Assembly (NCBI GenBank): GCA_023150915.1
Contig: JAKLKA010000002.1
Location: 2,338-66,337, forward strand
DNA: 64,000 nucleotides
Source of the DNA: Polyangiaceae bacterium
GTDB taxonomy: Bacteria > Myxococcota_A > Polyangia > Polyangiales > Polyangiaceae
Direction of reading: 5' to 3'
The position numbers and the translations under genes were made by a program. Position 1 is the first letter of the stretch. Each line of letters starts with the position of its first letter. Shown here one piece after another: positions 1,338 to 64,000 of the stretch. The notes beneath the pieces were generated by a model, which was not told the origin of the DNA, did not search any database, and saw only the letters and a program-made list of their open reading frames with translations.

Positions 1338-1497
1338 GTGCCCGCCGACGATCTCGCGAACATGTTCCAGTACGAGCGGGACTTCGAGAACGAGTACTGC
1401 GGCGCGCAGCATCGAGTTCTCGCGTTCGGTGAATCCCGAGCTGCAGAGCTTTGCGCAGTGGCTCGAGCGCAACGGCTCGCGCATCGCGCTGAGCTGA
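1338..1497 (+). pseudogene. 3' remnant of an NmrA-like family gene, frameshifted
   Basis: Two frames join near 1410: ...DDLANMFQYERDFENEYCGAQ then SIEFSRSVNPELQSFAQWLERNGSRIALS*. Together these resemble the C-terminal ~50 aa of NmrA-like proteins (recalled pattern DLANMFRFY...LNP...QWL). There is no room for the ~250-aa N-terminal part after the AraC stop at 1288. Confidence 0.45.
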
Positions 1498-1542
1498 CGC
1501 CTCGGGCGCCGCTGCGCCCCCCTCCCCCCGTCGCCCTTCCGC

Positions 1543-1959
1543 TCAGCGCGTCGCGCCGAGGTGCGCCCGCAGATCGGCGTCGGCTGTCTGCTCGTGATCG
1601 TGGAACCAGTTCTCGAGCTGTTCCGCCACCACGGGGGCCAAGCCCTTGTTGCCGTCGACGCATTCGGCCCGCACGCTCTCGATGTGCCGCAAGAACTTGC
1701 GGTGTCCCTCCCGGTGGTCCTCGGTGTGCGGGTAGTCGTCACGCTCCATCGCGTACTCTTCGGCGGCGAAGTGCTGGCGAAGGTCCTCGATCAGCGCCCC
1801 GAGCAGACTGCAGACCCCGCGCGGATCGCCGCCGGCGCGGGCGGCACGCTTCAGCTGCGCCAGGGCCGTGGCGAGCTGGCTGTGCTGGACGGACGGGTCG
1901 TCGGGAAACGTGGGGCGATCTTCTCCGTGGTCGTCTTCCAGCATCGGTTCGGCACCCAT
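1543..1959 (-). CDS. Hemerythrin-like metal-binding domain protein
   Basis: ORF 1543..1983; ATG at 1959 preceded by GAGGG. His/Glu/Asp ligand pattern HFAAEEYAME...HTEDHREGHRKFLRHIE...WFHDHEQTADADL. Confidence 0.8.
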   Translation of the reverse strand: MGAEPMLEDDHGEDRPTFPDDPSVQHSQLATALAQLKRAARAGGDPRGVCSLLGALIEDLRQHFAAEEYAMERDDYPHTEDHREGHRKFLRHIESVRAECVDGNKGLAPVVAEQLENWFHDHEQTADADLRAHLGATR

Positions 1960-1996
1960 GCCACGACCCTCGGGTCGGGACAACCTGCCCCGCCTG

Positions 1997-4006: not shown

Positions 4007-4969
4007 TCAGACCTCCACGCGGGGGATTTGCTCCCAGCTCACCTTCCCGAGCCCGCGCTCTTCGCCCAGGGCAAGGTACTTCACGTTCGCCGGCTTCTCG
4101 CCGATCAGCGTGGCGCCATACGCGTCCACCGCGACCTGATCGAGGCTGGCGATGACCTGGTGCAGATCCTTCGCGTCGTCGATGTTGCCGCCCTGCGGGC
4201 CGTTGCGCAGAAGGACGCGCGTGGCGTCGAGCACGGTGAGCGTGGGCCGCATGAAGGTGGCCAGATCGGCGATCGAGACGTCGATGTTCTGATGCAGGCG
4301 GTTACGGCGGCCCCCGAGCAGGCCGTACCAGTTCTTCATCGCGCCGGTGTACTTCGACAGGTTGTGGTGCTTGGCCACTGGCACGTTGATCACCTTGTCG
4401 GCGTTCACCAGTGGGGTGTACACCGGCCAAAGGTCGAGCACGTCGCCTTTCATGCGCAGCTCGCGGAAGCGGTGCGCCGCCGGCAAGATGACGGTGGCGC
4501 CCACGGCGTGCGTCGCGCGCCAGATCCCCGAACGCTGGAAGCAGCGGTTCGGCTCGTTGCACGAGGCATCGGTGACCACCACCCGCGCCGCGCCGGCGTC
4601 CAGGCACAGCTTGACCAGCTCGGCCACCACCACCGGGTTGGTGTTGGCGGCGTGGACCGGCATCCGATCCCAGCCGATGTTGGGCTTGATGGCCACCACG
4701 TCGCCGCGCGCGACGAACCGCGACATGCCACCCAGACCCTGGACCGCCTTGCGGGTCAGGTCCGCGGCGTCGGTCGAGCTCTTGGCGATGGCCATCACCG
4801 GCCCCGCGCCCGCCTTCAGGCCGAAGTCGCGCACCTGGCGCTCGGCCTCGAGCCGGGTCACGTCGAAGCCCCCCGGATCCCAGGTCAGCCTCGCTGCCAA
4901 GGCCGACCCGCCCAGCGCGGCGGTCGCCGCGCCGATTCGCCCAAGGGCTTCGCGGCGCGAGAGAGACAT
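4007..4969 (-). CDS. DUF362 domain protein with twin-arginine (Tat) signal
   Basis: ORF 4007..5440 trimmed to ATG 4969: MSLSRREALGRIGAATAALGG (RR motif). DUF362-like VAIKPNIGW...NTNPVVVAELVKL...VPVAKHHNLSKYTGAMKNWYG. Confidence 0.8.
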   Translation of the reverse strand: MSLSRREALGRIGAATAALGGSALAARLTWDPGGFDVTRLEAERQVRDFGLKAGAGPVMAIAKSSTDAADLTRKAVQGLGGMSRFVARGDVVAIKPNIGWDRMPVHAANTNPVVVAELVKLCLDAGAARVVVTDASCNEPNRCFQRSGIWRATHAVGATVILPAAHRFRELRMKGDVLDLWPVYTPLVNADKVINVPVAKHHNLSKYTGAMKNWYGLLGGRRNRLHQNIDVSIADLATFMRPTLTVLDATRVLLRNGPQGGNIDDAKDLHQVIASLDQVAVDAYGATLIGEKPANVKYLALGEERGLGKVSWEQIPRVEV

Positions 4970-49934: not shown

Positions 49935-51134
49935 TCACCGCGCCACGTAGCGCGCGCGCGGTCTGAGCAAGAAGCCCTGTTCGCGCTGCTCGAGCGCGTG
50001 AGCAATCCAGCCCGCCGAGCGCCCCAGCGCGAACAGAGCGCTCGCGGCTCCGACCGGCAGCCCCAGCGCGATGCGCACCGCGACCAGACCCGCGTCCAGG
50101 TTCGGCGCCGGCTGCTCGGCCGCGTGCATCGCGCGCACCACGGCCTCGAGCACCTTCAGCCGGGGCGGGCGCGCGAGCGTCGCCCGCGCCCGCGCCAGCG
50201 CCAAGAGCTGTGCGCCGCGCGGATCGCCCGCCGGATAGAGCGGGTGACCGAAGCCCGCGAGGGCCTCACCGCGGCGCACGCGCTCCGCCAGCACCGCGCG
50301 GGCGCGCGCAGGGCTGCCGACCTCGTCCAGCAACGCTTCGACGCGATCCGAGGCTGCGCCGTGGGCGGGACCGCTGAAGGCCGCGAGCGCCGCCGTGATG
50401 CAAGCCGGGAGCGTGGCACCGGCCGAGGCCACCACACGCGCTGCGAACGCCGACACGTTGAGCTCGTGATCGGCGCACAGCACCAGCGCTTGCTCCACTC
50501 CGGCCACGCGCCGTTCGGTGGCCTCGACCCCGAAGCTTGCCAGCGCGGCCCGCGCCACCGTGCTCGCGCGCGCTGCGCTCGCGGCGCGGCGTGGGTCGGG
50601 TGCCAGGGCGACGGCCAGCGTGCGCACCAGCTGGCCTGCGTTCGCCAGGGGCGCACACAGCGGATCGCCGGGCGCCAGGGTGGGGGCGACGCACAGCAGG
50701 CGCTCGACCCAGGTAGTGGCCCCGGCGCTCCGGGCGACGGGAACGGTGCTCCGCATCTCCGGACGCTCCGCAGGCAGCGAGCCCGCCCAGAGCAGCGCGC
50801 ACACCGACTCGAAGGGCGTGCCCTGGCGCGCCAGCTCGACCGCCCACTGTCCGCGGTAGCGCGGTCCGCTCGCTCCGATCTCGGTGATGGACGACTCGAG
50901 CACGGGCTCGCCCCAGCGCAGCGCACCGCTCGCCACCGCCGCGTGGCCCCCGCGGGCGTCGCGTCGCGCGCGCAGCCGCAGGAGATCTGCTCGGGCGTAG
51001 AGCCGCGCGCGACCTTCGCCGGAAGGCACGCTCGTGACGAGCCCGCGGCTGGCATACGCATAGAGCGTGGGCAGCCGCACCCCAAGGAGCTTCACTGCCT
51101 GCTTCGCGCTCACGAAATCGGATGGTTGATTCAT
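49935..51134 (-). CDS. Citrate-synthase-family protein with N-terminal MerR/excisionase-like HTH
   Basis: N-terminus SAKQAVKLLGVRLPTLYAYASRGLV (HTH); CS-like core with GPAHGAAS and GFGHPLYPAGDPR. Confidence 0.75.
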   Translation of the reverse strand: MNQPSDFVSAKQAVKLLGVRLPTLYAYASRGLVTSVPSGEGRARLYARADLLRLRARRDARGGHAAVASGALRWGEPVLESSITEIGASGPRYRGQWAVELARQGTPFESVCALLWAGSLPAERPEMRSTVPVARSAGATTWVERLLCVAPTLAPGDPLCAPLANAGQLVRTLAVALAPDPRRAASAARASTVARAALASFGVEATERRVAGVEQALVLCADHELNVSAFAARVVASAGATLPACITAALAAFSGPAHGAASDRVEALLDEVGSPARARAVLAERVRRGEALAGFGHPLYPAGDPRGAQLLALARARATLARPPRLKVLEAVVRAMHAAEQPAPNLDAGLVAVRIALGLPVGAASALFALGRSAGWIAHALEQREQGFLLRPRARYVAR

Positions 51135-51179: not shown

Positions 51180-52298
51180 ATGAGCACCGGAGCAAATGGG
51201 CTGGAAGGCGTGGTCGTGGCCGATACCGCGCTGTCCGACGTGGACGGCGAGCGGGGCGAGCTGTGGATCCGCGGCGAGCCGGTCGAGCGCCTGGCCGTGC
51301 GCCACGCGTTCGCTGAAGTGCTGGGCTTGCTCACCACCGGCGAGCTGCCCGAGCCGACCGATGGCCGTATCCCGAGCCTGCTTTCCCGAGGCCGAAGCCT
51401 GGCGCACCGGCGCCTCTCGCAGCTCGGCGACGCCATCGACCAGCCCAACGCGATGGATGCGCTGCGCGCCGGCGTCGCACACTACCGAGCCGCCGATCTG
51501 GGCCCCGGCGACGAAGCGGCCGCAGTGCTCGCCGGGGTGGTCGCGACGCTGGCCGCGGCTTGGGCGTGTCGCCAGCGCGGTGAAGAGTTGCCCGAGCCCG
51601 ATCCGGCCGCCGGTCACGCCGACGACGTCTTGCGGCTCCTGGGGGCGCGACCGGGCCCCGCCGGGCGCGCGCTCGACGCTTACTGGATCGCGGTGATCGA
51701 TCACGGGCTGAATGCGTCGACGTTCGCGGCGCGCGTGGTCGCTTCGACCGGCTCCGATCTCATCAGCGCGGTGACTGCGGCGATCGGCGCGCTCAAGGGC
51801 CCGCTGCATGGTGGAGCGCCCGGCCCGGTGCTGGACATGCTCGACGCCATCGGCAGCGAGCCGAGCGCCGAGCCATGGCTCCGTCAGGAGCTCGCGGCCG
51901 GTCGCCGCATCATGGGCATGGGGCATCGCATCTACCGCGTGCGCGATCCCCGGGCGTTGGTCCTCGAGCAAGCGCTGAGCCGCTATCGCCAGGCGCTGGG
52001 CCAAGGCGCTGACCCCGTCGTGCGGCGGCTCGAGCTGGCCCGCCACGTCGAGCGCGTGGCCACGCGGCTCCTCTCCGAACGCCACCCCAGCCGCCCGCTG
52101 GCCGCCAACGTCGAGTTCTTCACCGCGGTCCTGCTCGAAGCCATCGGGGTTCCGCGCTCGCTCTTCAGTGCGATGTTCGCCGCGTCGCGCGTGGTCGGCT
52201 GGTGCGCGCACGTGGCCGAGCAGCGCGCCAGCGGGCGACTGATCCGACCCGCGTCGCGCTACGTGGGCGCACGCAGCGGGGCTGCCCCCGCGGCGTGA
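51180..52298 (+). CDS. Citrate synthase / 2-methylcitrate synthase family protein
   Basis: ORF 49998..52298 trimmed to ATG 51180; GLNASTFAARV, KGPLHGGAPG, GMGHRIYRVRDPR, ANVEFF. Confidence 0.85.
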   Translation: MSTGANGLEGVVVADTALSDVDGERGELWIRGEPVERLAVRHAFAEVLGLLTTGELPEPTDGRIPSLLSRGRSLAHRRLSQLGDAIDQPNAMDALRAGVAHYRAADLGPGDEAAAVLAGVVATLAAAWACRQRGEELPEPDPAAGHADDVLRLLGARPGPAGRALDAYWIAVIDHGLNASTFAARVVASTGSDLISAVTAAIGALKGPLHGGAPGPVLDMLDAIGSEPSAEPWLRQELAAGRRIMGMGHRIYRVRDPRALVLEQALSRYRQALGQGADPVVRRLELARHVERVATRLLSERHPSRPLAANVEFFTAVLLEAIGVPRSLFSAMFAASRVVGWCAHVAEQRASGRLIRPASRYVGARSGAAPAA

Positions 52299-52367: not shown

Positions 52368-53273
52368 TCACCCGGCGACCACCGGCAGGCCGTGCTCACG
52401 GAGCAGGCGCGCCGCGGCTTCGAGCTCGGCGTCACCCGGAGGCGTGGTGTCGGCATGGGGATAGCGCGTGCCATACAGCGCCGCTTTTCCCGATGCGAGG
52501 CGGTGGAACGGCTGGAGCTTCACCGCCGGGACCCGCGGGCGCTGGCGCAGCCAGCGCGCGATGGCCTCGAGCTCGTCCCGCCCGGAGTTGAACCCGGGGA
52601 CCAGCGTCACGCAGAGCTCGAGCTCCACGTCGGTGGCGAGCAGCGCGTCGAGGTTCTCCAGAATCGCGCGGCCGTCGACGCCCATCACGCGTGTGATCGC
52701 CGCGGCGTCGCAGTGCTTGAGGTCGAACAAGACCAGGTCTGCGCGTTCCGCCAGCTCCGCCACGTGTCTCCGGGGCCAGAGTCCCGCGGTCTGCACGGCG
52801 ACGTGGACGTTCCGGGTCGCCAGCTCGGCCGCGCACGCGAAGACGAAGTCGGCTTGCAAGAGGGGCTCACCGCCGGAGAAGGTCACGCCCCCGCCGGTGC
52901 CGCGGAAGAAGTCGGCGTCCACGAGCACCTCGCGCACCAGCTCCTCGACGCTCAGCTCCCGCCCGACCTTGCGCCGCGCGCCCGACGGGCAGACCTCCAC
53001 GCAGCGCCCCGCGAGATCACAGCCGTCGCGCCAGGCGTCGGTGCCGTCCAGCGCCCAGGCGCCCGGGTTCCGCGGGCAAGCCTCGACGCAGCGCCCGCAG
53101 CGAATGCAGAGTGCGGCGTCGTAGGCGATCTGAGGGCGGTGCGAGGTCCCCTCCAGGTTGTGGCACCAGGGGCAGCCGAGGGCGCAGCCCTTCAGGAACA
53201 CGACTGTTCTGAGCCCGGGTCCGTCGTGGACGCAGCCCTTCGAGACGTCGAAGACGCGCCCGAGTGGGCTCAC
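52368..53273 (-). CDS. Glycyl-radical enzyme activating protein (radical SAM)
   Basis: GTG 53273 (GTGA overlap with GRE stop); DGPGLRTVVFLKGCALGCPWCHN (CX3CX2C) plus CIRCGRCVEACP ferredoxin-like motif. Confidence 0.9.
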   Translation of the reverse strand: MSPLGRVFDVSKGCVHDGPGLRTVVFLKGCALGCPWCHNLEGTSHRPQIAYDAALCIRCGRCVEACPRNPGAWALDGTDAWRDGCDLAGRCVEVCPSGARRKVGRELSVEELVREVLVDADFFRGTGGGVTFSGGEPLLQADFVFACAAELATRNVHVAVQTAGLWPRRHVAELAERADLVLFDLKHCDAAAITRVMGVDGRAILENLDALLATDVELELCVTLVPGFNSGRDELEAIARWLRQRPRVPAVKLQPFHRLASGKAALYGTRYPHADTTPPGDAELEAAARLLREHGLPVVAG

Positions 53274-55843
53274 CCGTCGGCCCCGAACTCGGCGCGGGCG
53301 ATGATGTCGTCCTGGATGGACCGCCCCAGGTCGGTGAAACACGCCGAGTAGCCGGACACCTTGACGATCAGGTCGCGATGGCGCTCGGGATGAAGCTGCG
53401 CGTCGCGCAGCGTCTCGACCGAGACGAAGTTGGGCTGAAGGTGCATGCCGCCGAGCGAGAAGTAGGTCTTCAGCATGGCGGCGAAGGTGTCGAGGCCGCG
53501 CCCGTCTTTGATGAAGTTCGGGTGGAAGCGGATGTTGAGCGCGATGCCCGATGACGCCTGGGCCGGGGGGATCTTGGCCGCGCTGCGCATGCCGGCGTGT
53601 GGGCCGCCCGTGGGCTTCACCAGGTTGCTCGGCGAGACGCCGTTCGAGATCGGCGTGCCTCGCCGCCGGCCGTCGGGCGTGGCGCCGAGGAACAGCCCGT
53701 CGACCACGTGGTTGCCCAGCGAGAAGTAGGCGACGCGGTATCGTCCGCCGCGCACGTTGCGTCGCGCCTGGACGTGACCGTGGATGCGCTCGACGATACG
53801 CAACGCGAGGGCGTCCGCCTGGGCGTCGCCGCTGCCATACTTGGGCGATTCGCGCAGGAGGCGCTGGCGCAGCGCCTCTTGCCCGGCGAAGTCGTCGAGC
53901 ACGATGGCCACGAGCTCATTCAGTCCCAGCTCTTTCCGGTCGTAGACGAGGGTCTCGATGGCCAAGAGTGAGTCCACCAGCGTCGCCAGCCCGCGCACGT
54001 CGATGGAGGTGAAATCGTACTTCGCGCCGCCGGTGGTGACGTCGTTCGCGCCCTCGATGCAGCCCTGGATCAACGCCGAGACGTAAGGTGCCGGCAGCAT
54101 CTCGGCGTGGGCCTCGTCCTTGCCGGCGATGGCCCGGACCATGGTGTCGAGCTGGTGCGAGAGCTGCCGATCGAAGGCCGCGAAGAGCCCCTCGAAGCTG
54201 TCGAAGTGCGAGGGGTCGCCGCTCGAGAAGCCGGCTTGTTGCCCGGGGGCCGCGGGTGGGAAGGCCCCGTTCGTCAGCGTGAGCATCAGTGCCGCCGGCA
54301 GCACGAAGTCGTGACCGGCCACACAGCCCTGGGTGTCGCCGTGCCCGCAGGTCTCGACGCAGCCCACGACGGTGTAGTCGCGCGCGTCCTCGTCCGAGTA
54401 GCCGTCGGCGCGCAGGCCGGGGACGATGGCCTCGTCGTTGTAGAACGCGATGCCGTTGGTGTGCCGGAAGACCTCGCAGGCGCGACGCACGAACCCTGCC
54501 GGCGTGCCGGCGTGCAGGCGCACACACAGCTGGTTCACGGCGCCGCGCATCTCCGCGTAAGCGTCGAGCGTGAGCTCGGACAGCTCGTTGGTGGCATCGC
54601 TGCCCGAGGGCGTCACTCCCCCGAGGGTCACGCAGTGCTGGCTGTTGCCGAGCACGGCGTTCGACTCCATGCCCACCTCGGGTGTCGGGCTCACGTTCGA
54701 GGACAACTTCAGGAAGTATTCCTGCAAGAGCGCGGTGGCCTCGGCGCGCTCGAGCGCGCCCGAGCGCAAGTCCTTCTGGAACAGCGGATAGAGGTACTGG
54801 TCGATGCGTCCCACCCCGAAGACATCCATCGTGCCGAACTGGATCTCGCCCACCACCTGGGTCATCCACGCAGACTGGAGCGCCTCGTGGAAGCTCGACG
54901 CGGGCAAGCGCGGGACCCTGCGGCAGTGCTCGGCGATGCGCCCGAGCCGGCGCCGCTCGTCGGCGCTCGTGGCCTCGCGCGCCTGCGCCTCGGCCAGCTC
55001 CGCGAAACGCTCGGAGTAGCGGATCGCCGCCTCCAGGCTGAGGATCACTGCCTGGAGGAACGCCTTGCCGCGCGAGTCCCCGGGGTCGAGCCGCGTGAGC
55101 TTCTCGTGCGCCCGCCGGATCAGCTCGGCCATTCCCAGCTCGACGACCTGGTCCAGGCCCAGGCACAGGTGGCCTTGCACGTCGTGGCAGTAGACGACGG
55201 GTGTCGGGTTCGCGAAGGCGAGCTCGTGACGCAGTCCGAGCAGGTTCTTCAGCCGGCGCAGGCTGGGGGGCGCGTGCAGGTTGGCCCCCAGGATCTTCTG
55301 CAGGCTGTCCCTGCCCACATAGCGAACGAAGCGGGCCGCGTCGCGCCAGCCGCGAGGGCTCGGTCGCGTGGAGACGACGCCCCAGCGCCGCCATTTGTCG
55401 GCCTTCAGGTCGTGCAGCGTGCGCCCGTCCCAGTAGGGCAAGATTTCGTTCCAGAAGCAGCTGCGGTCCTCGTCGGAGATCTTGAAGGGCTTGGCCTTCT
55501 TCTCCAGAACGTCGAGCTCCATCTGGAGCACGCGCAGGAAATCACCCCGGTCGACCGACAGCGGTGTCGACAGGAAGCGCTCGGTCTTGGTCCCTGCCAG
55601 GTGCTCGTCGGCGTAGATGAAGATGCGCTGCTTCTCCAGCGTACGCTCCAGCGCGCGCGCGGCGCGCAGGGCCGGGTCCTGTCCCTCGGTCTCCCGGTAG
55701 ACCGCCGTGTAGTGGCGGGCGCGCGCCAGGCAGATCTCGTAGTCGGCCGTGAGCAAGCGCTCCTTCATGCGGCGCACGCGCGGCGCCAACCCCGGTCGCG
55801 GTGCGGGCGCGGACACGTCGAGCGACACGCCCTGGTCGGTCAT
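53270..55843 (-). CDS. Glycyl radical enzyme, PFL2 / dehydratase-lyase-like family
   Basis: 857 aa; thiyl loop VVGCVETCGHG; C-terminal glycyl radical motif IVKVSGYSACFTDL. Confidence 0.9.
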   Translation of the reverse strand: MTDQGVSLDVSAPAPRPGLAPRVRRMKERLLTADYEICLARARHYTAVYRETEGQDPALRAARALERTLEKQRIFIYADEHLAGTKTERFLSTPLSVDRGDFLRVLQMELDVLEKKAKPFKISDEDRSCFWNEILPYWDGRTLHDLKADKWRRWGVVSTRPSPRGWRDAARFVRYVGRDSLQKILGANLHAPPSLRRLKNLLGLRHELAFANPTPVVYCHDVQGHLCLGLDQVVELGMAELIRRAHEKLTRLDPGDSRGKAFLQAVILSLEAAIRYSERFAELAEAQAREATSADERRRLGRIAEHCRRVPRLPASSFHEALQSAWMTQVVGEIQFGTMDVFGVGRIDQYLYPLFQKDLRSGALERAEATALLQEYFLKLSSNVSPTPEVGMESNAVLGNSQHCVTLGGVTPSGSDATNELSELTLDAYAEMRGAVNQLCVRLHAGTPAGFVRRACEVFRHTNGIAFYNDEAIVPGLRADGYSDEDARDYTVVGCVETCGHGDTQGCVAGHDFVLPAALMLTLTNGAFPPAAPGQQAGFSSGDPSHFDSFEGLFAAFDRQLSHQLDTMVRAIAGKDEAHAEMLPAPYVSALIQGCIEGANDVTTGGAKYDFTSIDVRGLATLVDSLLAIETLVYDRKELGLNELVAIVLDDFAGQEALRQRLLRESPKYGSGDAQADALALRIVERIHGHVQARRNVRGGRYRVAYFSLGNHVVDGLFLGATPDGRRRGTPISNGVSPSNLVKPTGGPHAGMRSAAKIPPAQASSGIALNIRFHPNFIKDGRGLDTFAAMLKTYFSLGGMHLQPNFVSVETLRDAQLHPERHRDLIVKVSGYSACFTDLGRSIQDDIIARAEFGADG

Positions 55844-57639
55844 GCGAACAGCTCCTCTTCGGTCTTCAGGGTCAAACCGTCACTATCCAAGAGGCGCGCG
55901 GCGGGTCCCTCGACCTTCGGCAGCTCGTAGGCGAAGAAGAAGCGGAACGCGCTCAGCTTGCTGCGATAGAAGCGGGCGTCGGCCTCGGATGGGTCACGCT
56001 CGAGCCCGCGCTCAGCCGTCATCGCCTGACGCAGCCATTGCCATGCGACCGCCACCGTGCCGAAGACCTCGAGGTAGAGGGTAGCATCGGCCAGGAAGAG
56101 ATCGATCTTCCCCTCGAGAGCCAGGCCGGTGAGGTGCTGCGTTACCGCCGTGAGCCGATCGAGCGCTGCCTGGAGCTGCGCGGCGTGCGCGCCCAGCCCG
56201 GCGACGCCGCGCGCTTCGCTGATGCTCGTGCCCACCTCGTCCAGGAACAGGAACATGGCCTTCCCGCCGTCCCGCACCACCTTGCGACCGAGCAGGTCGA
56301 GCGCCTGGATGCCGGTCGTGCCCTCGTGAATGGTGTGGATGCGGACGTCGCGATAGTACTGCTCGAGCGCGAAGTCGGCGCAGTAGCCGTAGCCACCCAG
56401 GCACTGGAGGCCCTGGCTCACCGCCAGGATGGCCTGCTCTGCGGGGTAGGACTTGGCCGCGGGAGTGAGCAGATCCAAGAGCAGCTCGCAGCGCTCCCTC
56501 GCGTCACCCTGCAGGGTCTGCGCGAGGTCGGAGTAGTGCGTGCACTGAAGCACCAGCGACAGCGACCCCTCGACGACTGCGCGCTGGAACAGCAGCATGC
56601 GCTTCACGTCCGCGTGCTCGATGATCGGCACCTGCGCCTGCGCGGGATCCTTGCTGGTGATGGGCCGGCCCTGCGGGCGATGGCGCGCGTAGTCGAGCGC
56701 GGCGTGGTAGGCCGCCGAGGCGATGGCGGTCGCGCCCAGCCCCACCTCGATCCGCGCCTCGTTCATCATCTGGAACATGTAGCGCAGGCCCGAGTGCGGC
56801 TGTCCCACGAGCCACCCGCGACAGTCGCCCGCGTCGCCGAGAGAGAGCTGGGTGATGGGCGCGCCGCGGTAGCCCACCTTGTGATAGACGCTGGTGCAGG
56901 TGACGTCGTTGTCGACGAGCCCGGAATCCGTGGGCCGGCGGTCGGGCACGACGAAGAGCGAGATCCCCTTGACCCCGGCGGGGGCGCCGTCGATGCGGGC
57001 GAGCAGCAGGTTGACGCCGTTCTCCGCCTGGTCGTGCCGCGCTGCCGAGATGAAGATCTTCTGCCCGTGGATCAGGTAGTGCCCCTCGGTCGTGGGCGTG
57101 GCGCGGGTGCGGATGTCGGAGAGCGACGAGCCGGCCTGCGGCTCGGTGAGCGCCATCGTGCCTTGCCACTCGCCGGCGTACATCTTCGGCAGGTAGAGGG
57201 CGCCGAGCTCCTCGGCGCCGAACGAGGCCAAGAGGTGTGCGGCCCCGGCGGTGAGAGCCGGAAAGACGCTGGTCGAGTAGTTCGCCGCCGCGAGGATGGC
57301 GCGGAACGCCGTCATCACCGTGCGCGGGATCTGCAGCCCGCCGTGCGCAACGGGGACGTCCGCGTTGATCCAGCCCCCCTGCCCGCACTCGCGCAACAGT
57401 GCCCGGATAGACGGGTGCACGCGAACCCGTCCGTCGATCAGCACCGGAGGCTCCTGGTCCATCTCGCGGAAGGGAGGCCAGAGGACCTCGCGACCGAGCT
57501 TGTGCGCCGTCGCCAGGGCGAGGTCGAAGGTCTCCCGGCTGTGGTCGGTGAAGGGCGCGTGCTCCGTGAGCGACTCGACTCCGAACTGTTCGTACAGCAG
57601 GAATTCGAGGTTCCGCGCGTCGATGACGGTGGGGGCCAT
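55840..57639 (-). CDS. Long (599 aa) acyl-CoA dehydrogenase with C-terminal extension
   Basis: TEPQAGSSLSD, GQKIFIS, YYRDVRIHTIHEGTTGIQALDL; ATGA overlap with GRE. Confidence 0.88.
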   Translation of the reverse strand: MAPTVIDARNLEFLLYEQFGVESLTEHAPFTDHSRETFDLALATAHKLGREVLWPPFREMDQEPPVLIDGRVRVHPSIRALLRECGQGGWINADVPVAHGGLQIPRTVMTAFRAILAAANYSTSVFPALTAGAAHLLASFGAEELGALYLPKMYAGEWQGTMALTEPQAGSSLSDIRTRATPTTEGHYLIHGQKIFISAARHDQAENGVNLLLARIDGAPAGVKGISLFVVPDRRPTDSGLVDNDVTCTSVYHKVGYRGAPITQLSLGDAGDCRGWLVGQPHSGLRYMFQMMNEARIEVGLGATAIASAAYHAALDYARHRPQGRPITSKDPAQAQVPIIEHADVKRMLLFQRAVVEGSLSLVLQCTHYSDLAQTLQGDARERCELLLDLLTPAAKSYPAEQAILAVSQGLQCLGGYGYCADFALEQYYRDVRIHTIHEGTTGIQALDLLGRKVVRDGGKAMFLFLDEVGTSISEARGVAGLGAHAAQLQAALDRLTAVTQHLTGLALEGKIDLFLADATLYLEVFGTVAVAWQWLRQAMTAERGLERDPSEADARFYRSKLSAFRFFFAYELPKVEGPAARLLDSDGLTLKTEEELFA

Positions 57640-57642
57640 CCT

Positions 57643-58404
57643 TCAGCCTTCCTGCCGTGCCGACAGCTCGGCGATGCACAGGGCCTGATTGCGGTCCTCG
57701 AGCCGAATCGCGTCCTCCAGGCTGCCCCCTCCGCTGTTGCAGTCGAGGGCCTCTTTCGTCAGGCGCAAGCCCAGCGCCGATTTGCTCTCCAGGTTCTTCG
57801 CCAGCGCCAGCGCCTGACCCATGAGCGCGGCGTCGTCGACGATCGCCTGTAGAAAGCCGAGCCGGTGCGCCTCTTCGGCGGGCAAGAAGTCGCCGGTCAT
57901 CAGGTAGCGCGCGGCGTTCGCCGTGCCGATGGCCCGAGGGAGCAGCCACGACGAGCCCATGTCTGCGCCGCCGAGGCCCAGGTTGACGTAGGCCGCCTGG
58001 AACCTGGCGCCCGGCGTGCCCAGGCGGATGTCGCAGGCCATGGCCATGGAGAAGCCGGCGCCGACGCACACGCCGTTGATCGCACCGATGATCGGCTGCG
58101 GGCAGCGCCGCATGCGCAGGATCAGCTCGGAGAACGTGCGCTGCGCCGTGTACGCGCTCTGGGGAGACAGACCACCCGCGGGGCTGACCAGGACCGGGTC
58201 CTTGATGTCGAGCCCGGCGCTGAAGGCGCGCCCGGCGCCCGTCAGCACGATCACCCGCGTCTCGGTGTCGTTCATGCGTTCGTCGAGGAACGCTCGAAGC
58301 TCGTCCCGCATCACGTGGTCGATGGCGTTCAAGCAGCGGGGGCGCTCGAGCGTCAGGATGGCAGTAGCGCCGTCTTGGTCGTGTCGGATCGTTTCGTAGG
58401 CCAT
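57643..58404 (-). CDS. Enoyl-CoA hydratase/isomerase (crotonase) family protein
   Basis: ORF 57643..58566 trimmed to ATG 58404; VIVLTGAGRAFSAGLDIK, AINGVCVGAGFSMAMACD. Confidence 0.88.
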   Translation of the reverse strand: MAYETIRHDQDGATAILTLERPRCLNAIDHVMRDELRAFLDERMNDTETRVIVLTGAGRAFSAGLDIKDPVLVSPAGGLSPQSAYTAQRTFSELILRMRRCPQPIIGAINGVCVGAGFSMAMACDIRLGTPGARFQAAYVNLGLGGADMGSSWLLPRAIGTANAARYLMTGDFLPAEEAHRLGFLQAIVDDAALMGQALALAKNLESKSALGLRLTKEALDCNSGGGSLEDAIRLEDRNQALCIAELSARQEG

Positions 58405-58477
58405 CGAGATCCCTCGGCGTGTATCCTGGACCCGTTCAGCCGTCGAAGGCCAGCCCGCTGGCGACGAGAGGTGAAGG

Positions 58478-59050
58478 ATGAGCCCGAGCTTCGTTCCACT
58501 GCAGGACCCGCCGTCGTTCCAGCGTTGGGCGGCCGCCCAGTGGCGCAGGCCGAACGACTCGACCATCTACGGCGCCGTCGAGCTCGACATGACCCGGCCG
58601 CTGGCGCTGATCGAACGTCTGCGCCACGAGTGGGGGATCCGGCTGACGCTCACCCACCTGGTCACGAAGGCGCTGGCCCTCGCCATCGCGAAGTATCCGC
58701 GCACCAACGTGAAGGTGCGGTTCTGGGGCAAGCTGGAGCAACGCCAGAGCGTGGACGTGATCGTGCTGGTCGCCGGAGAGGGTGGGCGCGATCTGTCGGC
58801 GCACCGCATCACCGGTGCGGACCAGCTTCCGCTGCGTGAGCTGGCGACCCAGGTCATCGAAGCCAGCGAGCGCATTCGACGCGACGAAGATCCGCAGTTC
58901 CGCCAGAGCCGTGAGCTGGTGACGCGAATGCCCTGGTGGCTGATGCGCCCCTTCCTGTCGCTCGCGAGCCTCTGCATGAACGAGCTCCACCTCGACCTGT
59001 CGAAGCTGGGGCTGCCGGTGGATCTCTTCGGCGTCGGCATGGTCACGAGC
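58478..59050 (+). pseudogene. 3'-truncated 2-oxoacid-dehydrogenase-type acyltransferase catalytic domain
   Basis: Recognisable E2-like domain up to ...DLFGVGMVTS. It then switches at 59051 into repeat-derived sequence read antisense to the vWA gene; the expected C-terminal DHRxxDG catalytic motif is missing. Confidence 0.6.
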
Positions 59051-59112
59051 GCTCTTCAGTGCGATGTGAGGCTCACCGCTTCAGCCGCTCGGCCGTGCGC
59101 ACCAGGTCGACG
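59051..59112. repeat. Right junction repeat: 17 nt identical to 52160-52176 fused to the 47-bp direct repeat
   Basis: gctcttcagtgcgatgt + gaggctcaccgcttcagccgctcggccgtgcgcaccaggtcgacg; equals 52160-52341 minus exactly 120 nt. Confidence 0.95.
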
Positions 59113-60932
59113 AATTCTCGCCGGCGCTCGTCCAGCTCGCCCGAGCTGGCCAGGCGCACGGTATCGGCGAAGCTCGAGCTGCCCTTGTGCGGCGAGTCCC
59201 TGAGCAGCATGCCGAGCTCTGCAACCGCGGCGGCGAAGCGGAAGTCGTCCGACTCCTTCGCGTCGGTGTCGCGCACGACGACCTCGATCAGCTGGCTCTC
59301 GCTGCCCGCCGGCTGCTTGTAGCGGAGCTTCACCGTCGCGAGCTCGCCCCGCGCCGCCTTGCCGGTGGGCGTGCCCGGCGCCTGGTACTTCAGTGGATCG
59401 TTGCCCGGCCCGGTGGGAGCGCCGCCCGCGGGCACGATCTCGTACAGCGCCGTCACGGTGTGGTCGGCGCCGATCTCGCCGGCGTCCTTCTTGTCGTCGT
59501 TGAAGTCGTGGTGAGAAAGCACGCGGTTCTCGTAGCCGATCAGCCGGAACTCGGAGACCTCGGCAGGGTTGAATTCGATCTGGATCTTCACGTCCTTGGC
59601 GATGGTCATCAGCGTGCCGGTGGCTTGCTCGACCAGCACCTTCTTCGCCTCGTTCAGCGTGTCGATGTAGGCGTAGTTGCCGTTGCCCTTGTCGGCCAGC
59701 TTCTCCATGGTCGAGTCGTTGAAGTTGCCGGCGCCGAAGCCCAGCACGCTCAAGAACACCCCGGTCTTGGCCTTCTTTTCCACCAAGTCGACCAGATCGC
59801 TCTGGCTGGTGACGCCGACGTTGAAGTCGCCGTCCGTCGCCAAGAGCACGCGGTTGACGCCGCCCTTCACGAAGCCCTGCTTCGCGAGCTCGTAGGCGAG
59901 CTGGATGCCTTCACCCCCGTTGGTGGAACCGCCAGAGCTCAGGCGATCCAGCGCGCCGAGGATGGTGGCCCTCTGGTCACCGGGCGTGGGCGGCAGCACG
60001 GTGCCCGCCGAGCCGGCATAGGCCACGATCGACACGCGGTCCACCGCGTCGAGCTGCTGTACCAGGAGCGAGAACGCCTGCTTGAGCAGCGGGAGCTTGT
60101 TCTCGTCGCTCATCGAGCCCGAGGTGTCGACCAAGAACACCAGGTTGGTGCCGGGCACGTCGGCGGGTGCGACGTGCTTGCCCTTGAGACCCAGCTTCAG
60201 CAGCCGGTGCCCGCTGGCCCAGGGCGCCGCGCCGACCTCGCTCGAGACCGAGAACGGGCGATCGCCCGTCGGCTCGGGATAGACATAGGTGAAGTAGTTG
60301 ATCATCTCCTCGATGCGCACCGCGCCCTTGGGGGGCAGCTGGCCGTCCCTCAGATGACGGCGGACCAGCGAGTACGACGCGGTGTCGACGTCGATCGAGA
60401 AGGTCGAGCGCGGATCGGTGGCGACGCGCACGAAGGGGTTGTCCGCGAAGGCATCGTAGGCGTCGCGGTTGAACCGCTGACCCTGATTCACAACCGGCAT
60501 GTCCTCGGACGAAGCCGCCGACGCGGCCGTCCCCGGGCCCAGGGTTCCTTTCTCTTTGCCCTCGGCCTTGTCCATCGACACCGACGCGACCTCGGCCCGT
60601 CGCCCCTGGGTGGTCACGAAGAGCATCGCGCCGGCCGCGGCGGCGGTGACGGTCATGGCGGCGAAGGCCACGGCCCGCAGGCGACGCTTCGGCTTCGGCG
60701 CACCCTGCGACGCCTGCTCGGCGATGCGCTCGCGCCGCGGCGCGTCCAGCGCCGGCTTCGGCTCAGAGCCGAGCTCCTCGCGCAGAGCGCCGAGCGTGCT
60801 CTTTACGCCTGCCAGCTCCTCGCGCAAGAGCTCGGACTCCGCGAGCTCGGCCTCGAATCGCGCCAGCTCTTCGCCGCTGAGCTCGCCGAGCGCATAGTCC
60901 GTGACGCGGGGATCTTCGTGGGCAGTGCTCAT
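59073..60932 (-). CDS. Anti-sigma-like N-terminal domain / TM / vWA (YfbK-like) protein
   Basis: ORF 59073..61595 trimmed to ATG 60932; N-terminus VTDYALGELSGEELARFEAEL, one TM, MIDAS LVFLVDTSGSMS; 4-nt overlap with the ECF sigma gene. Confidence 0.85.
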   Translation of the reverse strand: MSTAHEDPRVTDYALGELSGEELARFEAELAESELLREELAGVKSTLGALREELGSEPKPALDAPRRERIAEQASQGAPKPKRRLRAVAFAAMTVTAAAAGAMLFVTTQGRRAEVASVSMDKAEGKEKGTLGPGTAASAASSEDMPVVNQGQRFNRDAYDAFADNPFVRVATDPRSTFSIDVDTASYSLVRRHLRDGQLPPKGAVRIEEMINYFTYVYPEPTGDRPFSVSSEVGAAPWASGHRLLKLGLKGKHVAPADVPGTNLVFLVDTSGSMSDENKLPLLKQAFSLLVQQLDAVDRVSIVAYAGSAGTVLPPTPGDQRATILGALDRLSSGGSTNGGEGIQLAYELAKQGFVKGGVNRVLLATDGDFNVGVTSQSDLVDLVEKKAKTGVFLSVLGFGAGNFNDSTMEKLADKGNGNYAYIDTLNEAKKVLVEQATGTLMTIAKDVKIQIEFNPAEVSEFRLIGYENRVLSHHDFNDDKKDAGEIGADHTVTALYEIVPAGGAPTGPGNDPLKYQAPGTPTGKAARGELATVKLRYKQPAGSESQLIEVVVRDTDAKESDDFRFAAAVAELGMLLRDSPHKGSSSFADTVRLASSGELDERRREFVDLVRTAERLKR

Positions 60933-61459
60933 GACGTCCTCCCGGCGGCGCGCATCGGCAGCTCGGAGTCGCGGGCGATCTCCCGCTGGATGCGCTTGAT
61001 GGCCGTGTGCAGGATGAACCCGACGTTGCTGGTCGAGAGGCCCATGATCTTCGCGATCTCCTTGTAGCTGAGCCCGCCGTCGAGCTTGAGCAGCAGTGCT
61101 TCGCGCTCGCGCTCGGGCAGCGCTTCGAGCGCGACGCCGACTCGACTCAGGGTTTGTCTCCGTTCGAGCTTCTGGATGGGTCCACTGTCCGGGGCTTCGT
61201 TCACGTCGGCGTCCTCCAGGCTGCGAAGGCGCTGCGCTTTGCGGCGCGCGTCGACCGCCCGGTGCTTGCACACCGTGAAGAGCCAGGCGGCCAGGTGCCC
61301 TTCGACCGCCTCGCGCTCTGCTTTGCAGAGCTCGAGGAACGTCTCTTGGACCACGTCTTTCGCCTGGGCTCGGTCGACGAGGGTCGCTGCGTAACGAAGA
61401 AGCGCGGCTTCGTACCGGGACAGGGCTTCCATCACCCAGCGCACCTTTCCGTCCTGCAT
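60929..61459 (-). CDS. ECF-type RNA polymerase sigma factor
   Basis: Region 2 AKDVVQETFLEL...AWLFTVCKHRAVDARRK; region 4 LSYKEIAKIMGLSTSNVGFILHTAIKRI. Confidence 0.88.
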   Translation of the reverse strand: MQDGKVRWVMEALSRYEAALLRYAATLVDRAQAKDVVQETFLELCKAEREAVEGHLAAWLFTVCKHRAVDARRKAQRLRSLEDADVNEAPDSGPIQKLERRQTLSRVGVALEALPEREREALLLKLDGGLSYKEIAKIMGLSTSNVGFILHTAIKRIQREIARDSELPMRAAGRTS

Positions 61460-61899: not shown

Positions 61900-63174
61900 G
61901 TGGACGCAAGGGGGGACCGCGCCGAGCTTGCCACGCGCTACCGCGCGGTGCGCGACGGCACCGAGGCGCTCGCTCGCATGCTGTCCGCCGAGGACCAGCA
62001 GCTGCAGTCGATGCCGGACGCGAGCCCGACCAAGTGGCATCGCGCACACGTCACTTGGTTCTTCGAAGAGTTCCTGCTCCGCCCGAGCGGCGTCCCGCCC
62101 GTCGACGAGCGCTACCGGTACCTGTTCAACTCGTACTACGACGCGGTCGGTCCGCGGCACCCGCGACCACGCCGCGGCATCCTCTCTCGGCCCAACGCGA
62201 CCGAGGTCGAGGCCTACCGGCGGGCGATCGACGGTCGCATGCTCGAGCTTCTGCAGAGCGTGGATGATGCCCGGCTGGCCGAGCTTCGCCCCTTGCTCGA
62301 GCTCGGGCTGGCGCACGAAGAGCAGCACCAAGAGCTGATCTTGACCGACATCGTGCACGCGTTCTCCGACAGCCCGCTCCTGCCCGCGGTGCGCCAGGCG
62401 TCCGCGCGGCCCGCGCTGCCCTCCGCCGAGGCGCTTCCGCTCCGCTTCCTGGAGCACGCCGGCGGCGTGTGCGAAGTGGGTGCGGGCGCCGGCGCCGGGT
62501 TTCACTTCGACAACGAGGGGCCGCGCCACCGCGTGTTCCTCGAACCGTACGCGCTCGCGTCGCGCGCCATCACGGTGGGCGAGGTGATCGCCTTCATTCG
62601 CGCAGGGGGCTATCTGAGCCCGGCCCTCTGGCTCTCGGAGGGCTGGGACTGGGTGCGTGCGCGAGGCCGCGAGGCCCCAGCGTACTTTCGCCTGGATGGC
62701 GGGCACGCGGTGGTGTTCGGCGTGGATGGCGAGCGCGAGGCGCTGGACGCCGAGCCTGCCGCGCACCTCTCTTACTTCGAGGCCGACGCGCTCGCGCGCT
62801 TCCTCGGGGGCCGGCTGCCCACCGAGCACGAGTGGGAGCACGCGGCGGCGCGCATCGATCCACGGGACGGCAACTTCCGCGAGAGCGGCGCGTTCGCGCC
62901 GCGACCGGTGTCGACCGAGTCGTCGACGCTGCAGCTCTTCGGCGACGTCTGGGAGTGGACGTCGTCGGCTCATGCGCCCTATCCGGGCTTCTCGCCTCGG
63001 GCCGGCGCCGTCGGGGAGTACAACGGCAAGTTCATGGTGAGCCAGCTGGTGCTGCGCGGAGGCTCGTGCCTCTCGCCCCTCGGTCACCTGCGCAGCACGT
63101 ATCGAAACTTCTGGCCCCCGGGCACGTTCTTCCAGATGAGCGGCGCGCGCGTCGCACGTTCGCTAGCAGGGTAG
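61900..63174 (+). CDS. egtB: Ergothioneine biosynthesis sulfoxide synthase EgtB
   Basis: GTG 61900 preceded by GGAGG; DinB-like N-terminus (PTKWHRAHVTWFFEEF, HEEQHQEL); FGE-sulfatase-like C-terminus (GDVWEWTSS, LRGGS). Confidence 0.88.
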   Translation: MDARGDRAELATRYRAVRDGTEALARMLSAEDQQLQSMPDASPTKWHRAHVTWFFEEFLLRPSGVPPVDERYRYLFNSYYDAVGPRHPRPRRGILSRPNATEVEAYRRAIDGRMLELLQSVDDARLAELRPLLELGLAHEEQHQELILTDIVHAFSDSPLLPAVRQASARPALPSAEALPLRFLEHAGGVCEVGAGAGAGFHFDNEGPRHRVFLEPYALASRAITVGEVIAFIRAGGYLSPALWLSEGWDWVRARGREAPAYFRLDGGHAVVFGVDGEREALDAEPAAHLSYFEADALARFLGGRLPTEHEWEHAAARIDPRDGNFRESGAFAPRPVSTESSTLQLFGDVWEWTSSAHAPYPGFSPRAGAVGEYNGKFMVSQLVLRGGSCLSPLGHLRSTYRNFWPPGTFFQMSGARVARSLAG

Positions 63175-63180
63175 GCCCGC

Positions 63181-64000
63181 ATGCACGACCCGATCGCCGA
63201 CGAGGTGCGCCGCGGCCTGACCGCGCCCGCGAAGTCTTTGCCGCCGCACCTGTTCTACGACGAAGAGGGCTCGCGCCTCTACGAGCAGATCACCGAGCTC
63301 GAGGAGTACTACCCGACCCGGACCGAGCGCGCGATCCTCGCGCGCCACGCGCCGACGATGGTCGCCCTGGCCGCGAGCGACAGCCAAGAGCCGCTGTCGG
63401 TGGTCGAGCTGGGAGCGGGCTCGGCCGACAAGACTCGCCTGATCCTCTCCGCGCTGGTCGCCACGCAGCAGCGCGCGGTCTACCTCCCGGTGGACGTCTC
63501 CCCCAGCGCGCTCGAAGCCGCGCGCGCTCGCATCGAGGCGGAGATACCAGGCATCGAGGTGCGCCCCTTCGTGGGGCGGCACGAGGCAGCGAGTGAGGCC
63601 ATTTCCCGCTTGGGCCCGCGCCGGCTGGTGCTGTTCATCGGCAGCTCCATCGGCAACTTCGAGGACGACGCCGCGGTGAGCTTGCTCCGCGCCGTGCGCC
63701 GCGGGCTCGTTCCCGGCGACGCGCTCTTGCTCGGGACCGACATGAAGAAGTCCCCCGCGCGCCTGCTGCCTGCCTACGACGACGCCCGCGGGGTGACCGC
63801 AGAGTTCAACAAGAACATCCTGGCGCGCATCAACCGCGAGCTGGGGGGCCGCTTCGAGCTCGAGCGATTCAAGCACGTGGCGCTGTGGAACGCGGCCGCG
63901 TCGCGCGTCGAGATGCACCTCGAGAGCCGCGTGGACCACTCCGTGCGCATCGACGCGCTGGGGCTCGACGTGAGCTTTCGCCGGGGCGAGCGCATCCACA
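63181..64000 (+). CDS. egtD: L-histidine N-alpha-methyltransferase EgtD (3' end beyond window)
   Basis: Hand translation from ATG 63181: LPPHLFYDEEGSRLYEQITELEEYYPTRTERAIL, ELGAGSADKT, FIGSSIGNF, AYDDARGVTAEFNKNILARINREL. No stop in window, so absent from the ORF track. Confidence 0.88.
   Translation, partial: MHDPIADEVRRGLTAPAKSLPPHLFYDEEGSRLYEQITELEEYYPTRTERAILARHAPTMVALAASDSQEPLSVVELGAGSADKTRLILSALVATQQRAVYLPVDVSPSALEAARARIEAEIPGIEVRPFVGRHEAASEAISRLGPRRLVLFIGSSIGNFEDDAAVSLLRAVRRGLVPGDALLLGTDMKKSPARLLPAYDDARGVTAEFNKNILARINRELGGRFELERFKHVALWNAAASRVEMHLESRVDHSVRIDALGLDVSFRRGERIH

Follow-up and report, generated by a model that had tools for sequence, protein, structure and literature searches.

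A glycyl radical enzyme operon with an acyl-CoA dehydrogenase and a crotonase-family gene in a Polyangiaceae bacterium: family placement and a tentative link to CoA-ester metabolism

A 64,000-nucleotide stretch of a Polyangiaceae bacterium, a soil myxobacterium (GenBank assembly GCA_023150915.1, contig JAKLKA010000002.1, positions 2,338 to 66,337; called the window here, at its full length) carries a minus-strand operon in which a crotonase-family gene and an acyl-CoA dehydrogenase (ACAD) gene are followed by the genes of a glycyl radical enzyme (GRE) and its radical SAM activase (AE). The GRE represents an uncharacterised family within the Cys-x-Glu (CXE) class of 1,2-eliminases and isomerases, claimed by no curated model or solved structure, and to judge from its motifs the GRE/activase pair very probably works as a radical eliminase or isomerase of the CXE type. 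We put at about 45% the probability that, in one clade of Polyangiales, this pair and the crotonase-ACAD module serve a common pathway. The support for it comes from translational coupling kept between GREs of 67-82% identity, from proximity that persists after rearrangement, and from independent co-occurrences of GRE, ACAD and crotonase genes. The close packing of the genes makes the case for a shared pathway look stronger than it is.

The first-pass annotation of this DNA had described four closely packed minus-strand genes, and the junctions, read directly from the sequence, bear this out. The crotonase gene ends 3 nt before the ACAD start (ggc TGA agg ATG), the ACAD and GRE genes share an ATGA overlap (gcATGAcc), and the GRE and activase genes share a GTGA overlap (ggGTGAgc). 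The boundaries of the GRE and the activase are the same in independent gene calls on the 99%-identical public contig CAUJFP010000074.1 (GCA_963169825.1), where the activase is again called with 301 aa. Downstream, a convergent citrate synthase gene ends at 52298, and on the upstream side a divergent gene begins at 58478, so that the four genes for crotonase, ACAD, GRE and activase form a transcription unit of their own. Consensus promoter and terminator scans gave nothing informative, including no sigma-70 consensus match in the presumed promoter region, as is to be expected at the window G+C content of ~70%; tRNA and Rfam scans returned nothing relevant. Coordinates and domain matches are collected in Table 1.

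The residues expected of a working CXE enzyme are present in the GRE and are highly conserved in its family. The glycyl radical motif VKVSGYSA, with Gly831, is invariant in 19 of 19 family members, and so are Cys495 and Glu497 of the Cys loop (Gly494-Cys495-Val496-Glu497, GCVE) across the family, so that the eliminase-type assignment made from the GCVE motif in the first-pass annotation stands. His225, also invariant, aligns with His164 of glycerol dehydratase (GD) and His160 of HypD, and position 340 is acidic (Asp or Glu) throughout. Further invariant residues are Gln402, Cys507, His511 and the Ser708, Asn711 and His712 of a Ser708-x-Gly-Asn-His712 segment. A basic, Arg/Lys-rich helical insertion of ~60 residues (~150-215) precedes the His-containing strand; its length is conserved in the family, and it is absent from the solved eliminases. 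The activase shows Radical_SAM and ferredoxin-like Fe-S motifs by Pfam and NCBIfam profiles. According to a review of June 2026 (PMC13450708), CXE GREs are eliminases or isomerases, and in every characterised CXE enzyme the Glu hydrogen-bonds to or deprotonates the substrate hydroxyl adjoining the site of hydrogen abstraction.

The placement of the GRE outside characterised subfamilies, as anticipated at first pass, follows from several comparisons. All NCBIfam equivalogs fail by a wide margin (HypD 466 bits against a cut-off of 1100, HpsG 446 against 1000, HpfG 427 against 1000, PflD-type PRK09983 411 against 1109, CutC 379 against 1050), and the TIGR01774 subfamily model, at 531.7 bits, is also under its cut-off of 678. 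A PDB sequence search returned a flat list from ~390 to 300 bits (propanediol dehydratase (PD), HypD, GD, CutC, PflD, YbiW, HplG, IseG, IslA). A Foldseek search with an AlphaFold2 (AF2) model of predicted template modelling (pTM) score 0.86 gave TM scores of 0.80-0.83 and probability 1.0 at 25-30% identity to GD, PD, CutC and HypD, again with no favourite. The fold is the 10-stranded barrel of PFL-like GREs, with Cys495 on its Cys loop. A known GRE function was rejected for these reasons. The substrate-contact comparison with GD and HypD that had been proposed found the positions mostly replaced, with the contact roles taken as described in the GD and HypD literature. GD Ser282, Tyr339, Asp447 and Tyr640 align with Asp340, Ser401, Ala509 and Phe707 of the GRE, and across the family they become Asp/Glu, Ser, Ala/Gly and Phe/Tyr, respectively. 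HypD Ser334, Phe340 and Thr645 align with Val397, Gln402 and Leu709, and of the HypD contacts only Asp278 matches, at the acidic position 340.

Among known systems, the 1,2-eliminases (GD, PD, HypD, CutC, IslA/HpsG) resemble the window GRE in fold, glycyl radical motif, Cys-x-Glu loop and aligned His, and in having a dedicated TIGR02494-type activase encoded next door. They differ from it in sequence, in their substrate-contact positions and in lacking the basic insertion, and the window locus has CoA-ester enzymes as neighbours in place of microcompartment or aldehyde-processing genes. The isomerases PflD, YbiW and HplG share the CXE motif (349-364 bits, TM about 0.8), whereas genes of sugar-phosphate or hydroxyproline pathways are absent near the window GRE. 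The Pfam annotations of the collinear public contig, taken 10 kb to each side, include no bacterial microcompartment shell families, and by the same annotations microcompartment, aldehyde dehydrogenase and alcohol dehydrogenase genes are absent near the GRE; a microcompartment locus was rejected on the lack of shell genes. An Asgard microcompartment preprint was set aside as unrelated.

To our knowledge, X-succinate synthase operons (bss/ass/mas) are the only GRE systems that feed a CoA-level, beta-oxidation-like route, and they too cluster a GRE and an activase with ACAD and crotonase-family genes. A fumarate-adding enzyme was nevertheless rejected, in agreement with the first reading of the locus. 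Among the PFL-like GREs these enzymes are the least similar to the window GRE (MasD 206 bits, TutD 182 bits, 22% identity in Foldseek). Small accessory subunits are absent beside the GRE, and there is no space for them, with operon genes overlapping or 3 nt apart and with the citrate synthase and an acyltransferase remnant as flanks. Genes for a succinyl-CoA transferase, a mutase or a thiolase, as in the X-succinate synthase operons, are also lacking from the window operon. A paper on a limonene GRE was set aside as a precedent since its enzyme is fumarate-adding.

Recurrence of the neighbourhood was followed through compared loci, which carry L-numbers as labels. In a neighbour-joining tree of GREs the window falls into one monophyletic Polyangiales clade with 67-100% identity to the window GRE; L041, with a partial GRE only, was assigned to the clade by identity and is not in the tree. 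Crotonase and ACAD genes both lie near the GRE in at least 7 of the 11 loci, in three gene orders. The order crotonase-ACAD-GRE-AE is found in the window, L002, L084, L086 and L090, the order GRE-AE-crotonase-ACAD in L041, and in L087 GRE-AE is convergent with an ACAD-crotonase pair on the other strand. L085 has only the ACAD beside the GRE, L021 only the crotonase, L001 neither, and L081/L082 only a truncated ACAD. In the window, L084, L085, L086 and L090 the end of the ACAD gene and the beginning of the GRE gene meet in an ATGA-type overlap or are separated by a very small gap, and start/stop overlaps of the two genes are thus retained at 67-82% GRE identity. In L041 and L087 the crotonase and ACAD remain near GRE-AE after rearrangement. 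The grouping of GRE, ACAD and crotonase is therefore not unique to the genome in which the first-pass annotation noticed it. GntR/FCD regulators lie upstream in L002, L008, L010, L015, L020 and L090; they were set aside as a sign of acyl-CoA sensing because FadR models give only 62-83 bits, far under the cut-off, and NanR and PdhR match about equally.

The ACAD is of the long (~600 aa) FadE5/DmdC type, with the N-terminal, middle and C-terminal ACAD domains and the C-terminal PF12806 all present. It is 100% identical to a protein of a Polyangiaceae MAG in NCBI. It matches 6ijc (DmdC; 349 bits) and 6kpt/6ks9 (FadE5; 270 bits) over the full length, and also the Pseudomonas structures 8r1e and 8pns, and so shares the four-domain architecture of Mycobacterium FadE5, DmdC and the Pseudomonas FadE-type ACADs at 270-350 bits. 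The segment IHEGTTGIQ retains a Glu which we take to be the ACAD catalytic base. We know of no FadE5/DmdC-type ACAD reported beside a GRE.

The crotonase-family protein had been named an enoyl-CoA hydratase (ECH) at first pass; membership in the crotonase family (PF00378) holds, the hydratase function probably does not. In an alignment to a human reference fragment, the positions of the hydratase glutamates, Glu144 and Glu164 of the rat and human enzymes, are occupied by Ser (GAGFSMA) and Tyr (QAAYVN), the same in all GRE-linked orthologues. With both catalytic glutamates replaced, a canonical enoyl-CoA hydratase is unlikely, and the protein looks PaaG-like by alignment. Among solved structures it is closest to 5e0n, 3sll and the PaaG isomerases 4fzw_C, 3hrx and 6sl9. 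PaaG, a 1,2-epoxyphenylacetyl-CoA / delta3,delta2-enoyl-CoA isomerase, is likewise non-acidic at both positions in the computed alignment. There the Asp of GGADMG, which every GRE-linked orthologue has, lies opposite the Asp of the PaaG proteins of E. coli and Thermus, with one extra residue in the loop. It differs from PaaG in scoring 158 bits against the TIGR02280 cut-off of 345 and in the lack of paa genes nearby.

The GRE family extends well beyond Polyangiales. More than 100 cluster representatives and forty-odd loci in GTDB species representatives, all of them metagenome-assembled genomes (MAGs), have at least 50% identity to the window GRE. Their hosts are Myxococcota/'Deltaproteobacteria', Actinomycetota (Anoxymicrobiaceae, Geothermincolia, Acidimicrobiales) and one Promethearchaeota (Asgard) genome, from soil, groundwater, peat and sediment. 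The next nearest GREs have 37-40% identity, and those after them about 30-34%. The actinomycetotal clade (L019, L022-L030, L064), with GREs 50-52% identical and no adjoining activase, has a block of genes for an MBL-fold hydrolase, a CCA-type nucleotidyltransferase/HD protein, an alpha/beta hydrolase and HdrABC-like proteins, and a 394-aa ACAD 6-8 kb away. This synteny was discarded as a functional clue because it is kept only among close relatives.

CoA-ester or related genes were also seen near other GREs. Within the family, L012 has the order thiolase-aldehyde dehydrogenase (ALDH)-GRE-AE and L033 the order thiolase-GRE-AE, with the thiolase directly upstream of the GRE; a short-chain dehydrogenase/reductase (SDR) and an acyl-CoA synthetase lie near the GRE in L009, and an acetoacetate-decarboxylase-like gene and a 388-aa ACAD lie nearby in L085. 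In a MAG of Ca. Methanolliviera, an alkane-degrading archaeon (L032, 768..6270), a 38%-identical GRE and its activase adjoin a canonical ECH with both glutamates present; three HdrD-like CCG/Fe-S proteins are encoded at the same locus. In L089, the ACAD homologue P0144, which had been chosen only for its long contig and with its context not known beforehand, has a crotonase and a TetR gene as neighbours, together with another GRE of the CXE type (1470..4055), 34% identical to the window GRE. This other GRE belongs to a second large, uncharacterised GRE family (L089; L091 and L092 7001..~9600; L093), 63-71% conserved in Myxococcota, Hydrogenedentes, Phycisphaerae and Actinomycetota. Its conserved context runs TetR, GRE, in some cases AE, SDR/3beta-hydroxysteroid dehydrogenase, acetoacetate-decarboxylase-like, 400-aa ACAD, an unknown gene and TauE; the last, of the sulfite-exporter family, hints that this second family may be a C-S lyase. 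CrtI/phytoene-desaturase-family flavoproteins adjoin GRE-activase pairs of both uncharacterised families in unrelated MAGs (L006 3009..4718, L007 13409..14983, L093 5434..6879).

The upstream part of the locus shows signs of erosion. Two independent assemblies of a 99%-identical strain (L081/L082; GCA_963169825.1 and a Logan assembly of SRR33667359) align with the window in collinear blocks of 99.3-99.6% identity on either side of a clean 1365-bp deletion (L081 8684) with 1-2 bp of microhomology at its junction. Lost with it are the crotonase gene, the first ~160 ACAD codons (the residual ACAD has 438 aa), the presumed promoter region and the beginning of the divergent acyltransferase gene. 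In the window this acyltransferase matches only residues 1-191 of the 270-aa L084 orthologue (85% identity), and the part with the catalytic His motif FDHRVVDG (DHRxxDG) is absent; intact orthologues occupy the same position in L001, L021, L084 and L085. Its open reading frame continues into the 3' end of a von Willebrand factor A (vWA) gene, which suggests that the gene pair of an extracytoplasmic function (ECF) sigma factor and the vWA protein inserted into the acyltransferase gene.

Gene structure, catalytic motifs, family placement and the recurrence of the neighbourhood are direct results; the chemistry that we propose is inferred from the motif logic of the characterised CXE enzymes, and the sequence of its steps and the kind of substrate are likewise inferences. 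The activase would put a radical on Gly831, from where it would pass to Cys495, and the resulting thiyl radical would take a hydrogen from a hydroxyl-bearing carbon of the substrate. Glu497 would deprotonate that hydroxyl, and His225 together with the acidic residue 340 would help a vicinal leaving group, most likely OH, to depart, after which the alpha-keto radical would regain hydrogen from Cys495 to give an aldehyde or ketone. The ACAD would then introduce, and the crotonase shift, a double bond at the CoA-ester level, towards beta-oxidation; in an alternative order the two would act upstream of the GRE. On this reading the GRE/activase pair has, in one Polyangiales lineage, become coupled in transcription and translation to a widespread two-gene CoA-ester module. 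A CoA-level route dedicated to the GRE operon is possible, and our guess for the substrate is a lipid- or fatty-acid-derived hydroxy compound.

A number of observations weigh against such a shared pathway. The association has a single origin, in one monophyletic clade, and is absent or partial in L001, L021 and L085; in the deletion strain the GRE and activase are intact. At ~25 family loci with usable flanks beyond the Polyangiales clade, no crotonase or ACAD was found by tblastn at 1e-10, a search sensitive enough to detect 27%-identical ACADs elsewhere. There the activase is the only frequent partner of the GRE, the actinomycetotal clade lacking even that, and a Pfam census of 76 neighbours of non-Polyangiales members found no family enriched beyond 3 members. 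The window ACAD is an unexceptional representative of a very abundant family, and the GRE-linked ACADs do not form a specialised clade by sequence: over 8000 homologues pass 1e-50, hundreds of them at 61-66% identity, the nearest neighbours of GRE-linked ACADs at 64% identity are unlinked proteins, and L088 has a crotonase-ACAD pair without GRE whose ACAD, 70% identical, is as near to the window ACAD as the GRE-linked ones. The operon lacks a CoA ligase or transferase, a CoA-acylating aldehyde dehydrogenase, a 3-hydroxyacyl-CoA dehydrogenase and a thiolase, so a complete pathway cannot be written. The AF2 model has pLDDT below 50 in the active-site loops (495-500, 709-745, 830-832), and the divergent acyltransferase gene is a pseudogene in the window. 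Of the interpretation given at first pass, the eliminase-type motif, the place of the GRE outside characterised subfamilies and the recurrence of the adjacency are supported; the confinement of the adjacency to one clade, the partial losses, the PaaG-like crotonase, the ordinary ACAD and the missing pathway enzymes weaken the suggested anaerobic route feeding beta-oxidation.

Several of these points would be expected if the adjacency were historical, with a self-contained GRE-AE cassette, its substrate a free small molecule unrelated to CoA esters, inserted beside a housekeeping crotonase-ACAD pair in the ancestor of the clade and the two now drifting apart. The single origin, the activase as sole frequent partner in the wider family, the abundance of the ACAD family with a crotonase-ACAD pair standing alone in L088, and the losses in L001, L021, L085 and the deletion strain all fit this account. 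We consider it somewhat unlikely, as start/stop overlaps are retained in several diverged genomes, proximity outlasts two different rearrangements (L041, L087), in L089 an ACAD of this type and a crotonase adjoin a GRE of a second, unrelated family, and thiolase, ALDH, SDR and acyl-CoA synthetase genes occur near other family members. Another possibility is an acyl-CoA thioester as the direct substrate of the GRE, for example a 3-hydroxy-4-X-acyl-CoA or a dihydroxyacyl-CoA, which would become a 3-oxoacyl-CoA by loss of the vicinal group. The operon has no aldehyde dehydrogenase or CoA-activating enzyme between the GRE and the CoA enzymes, CXE logic requires a hydroxyl-bearing carbon such as beta-oxidation intermediates supply, a thiolase gene comes immediately before the GRE in L033 and lies ahead of an ALDH-GRE pair in L012, and the Arg/Lys-rich insertion could bind a phosphorylated moiety. 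A direct CoA-ester substrate nevertheless seems distinctly unlikely: a crotonase without the hydratase glutamates is an unlikely maker of 3-hydroxyacyl-CoA, CoA-ester genes are missing from the surroundings of most family members, and no characterised GRE eliminase uses a CoA ester (PMC13450708). That review, which covers every characterised GRE, names none with a CoA-ester substrate, in line with the earlier statement that known GREs act on free small molecules, and no characterised GRE with a crotonase/ACAD context turned up in it or in full-text literature searches. We are similarly doubtful of the broader proposal that an acyl-CoA-acting GRE, as part of an anaerobic beta-oxidation-like route, is conserved from Myxococcota to Actinomycetota and Asgard archaea, and that the second GRE family (L089/L091/L092 type), with its ACAD, SDR and acetoacetate-decarboxylase-like neighbours, performs related chemistry. 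It is highly improbable that the GRE is merely the diverged orthologue of an eliminase already known (propanediol or glycerol dehydratase, HypD, CutC or a sulfonate lyase). PD, HypD, GD and CutC are its best PDB and Foldseek matches and share its Cys, Glu and His, but scores of 380-470 bits against equivalog cut-offs of 1000-1100, the low identity, the different residues at the GD contact positions, the family's own invariants (Ser708-x-Gly-Asn-His712, Cys507, His511, Gln402) and the absence nearby of microcompartment and aldehyde or alcohol dehydrogenase genes all speak for a separate family.

Further gene pairs lie on either side of the operon. The citrate-synthase-family pair is divergent, and the citrate-synthase-like domain of its minus-strand member scores under all citrate synthase cut-offs. 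The ECF-sigma and vWA genes, which overlap, sit between the GRE locus and an ergothioneine biosynthesis pair.

Table 1. Features of the GRE operon and its surroundings, in window positions (1 is the first nucleotide of the window)
Feature	Position	Strand	Details
Crotonase-family gene	57643..58404	-	253 aa; PF00378 (1.4e-43); first gene of the operon
ACAD gene	55840..57639	-	599 aa; PF02771, PF02770, PF00441, PF12806
GRE gene	53270..55843	-	857 aa; PF02901 (8.5e-145), PF01228 (1.7e-22)
GRE activase (AE; radical SAM) gene	52368..53273	-	301 aa; GTG start; TIGR02494 275.4 bits, cut-off 174
Divergent intergenic region, presumed operon promoter	58405..58477		73 bp; placed by gene starts
Segment deleted in the 99%-identical strain	57161..58525		1365-bp gap in blastn of window against L081/L082
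Truncated stand-alone 2-oxoacid-dehydrogenase-type (E2/CAT-fold) acyltransferase remnant	58478..59050 (open reading frame to 59203)	+	divergent from operon
Citrate-synthase-family gene	49935..51134	-	399 aa; N-terminal MerR/HTH_17-type DNA-binding domain fused to citrate-synthase-like domain
Citrate synthase gene, PRK12350 type	51180..52298	+	
vWA/YfbK_C gene	59073..60932	-	619 aa
ECF sigma factor gene	60929..61459	-	
EgtB-like gene	61900..63174	+	DinB_2 and FGE-sulfatase
EgtD-like gene	~63181..64000	+	Methyltransf_33; extends past window end

GREs perform chemically difficult anaerobic reactions. Uncharacterised clades of them are numerous, and those newly assigned have so far each revealed a new route (choline to trimethylamine, hydroxyproline, sulfonates, anhydro-sugars). 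The family described here is large, unusually widespread, spans three phyla and has highly conserved presumed active-site residues, without a cultured or characterised member. CoA-ester enzymes are the one kind of metabolic neighbour that recurs beside it, and elsewhere such a pairing is known for fumarate-adding enzymes alone. Should the link between GRE and CoA-ester enzymes not be functional, the clade would still be a well-defined target for the discovery of GRE function. If the GRE did act directly on a CoA ester, it would be the first GRE eliminase with such a substrate and would offer a radical, redox-neutral way around the step of the 3-hydroxyacyl-CoA dehydrogenase. If the crotonase-ACAD module and the GRE do share a pathway, the operon would represent an unrecognised anaerobic step in the turnover of lipids or hydroxy acids in soil, and would imply an anaerobic capability in the Polyangiaceae, which are regarded as aerobes.

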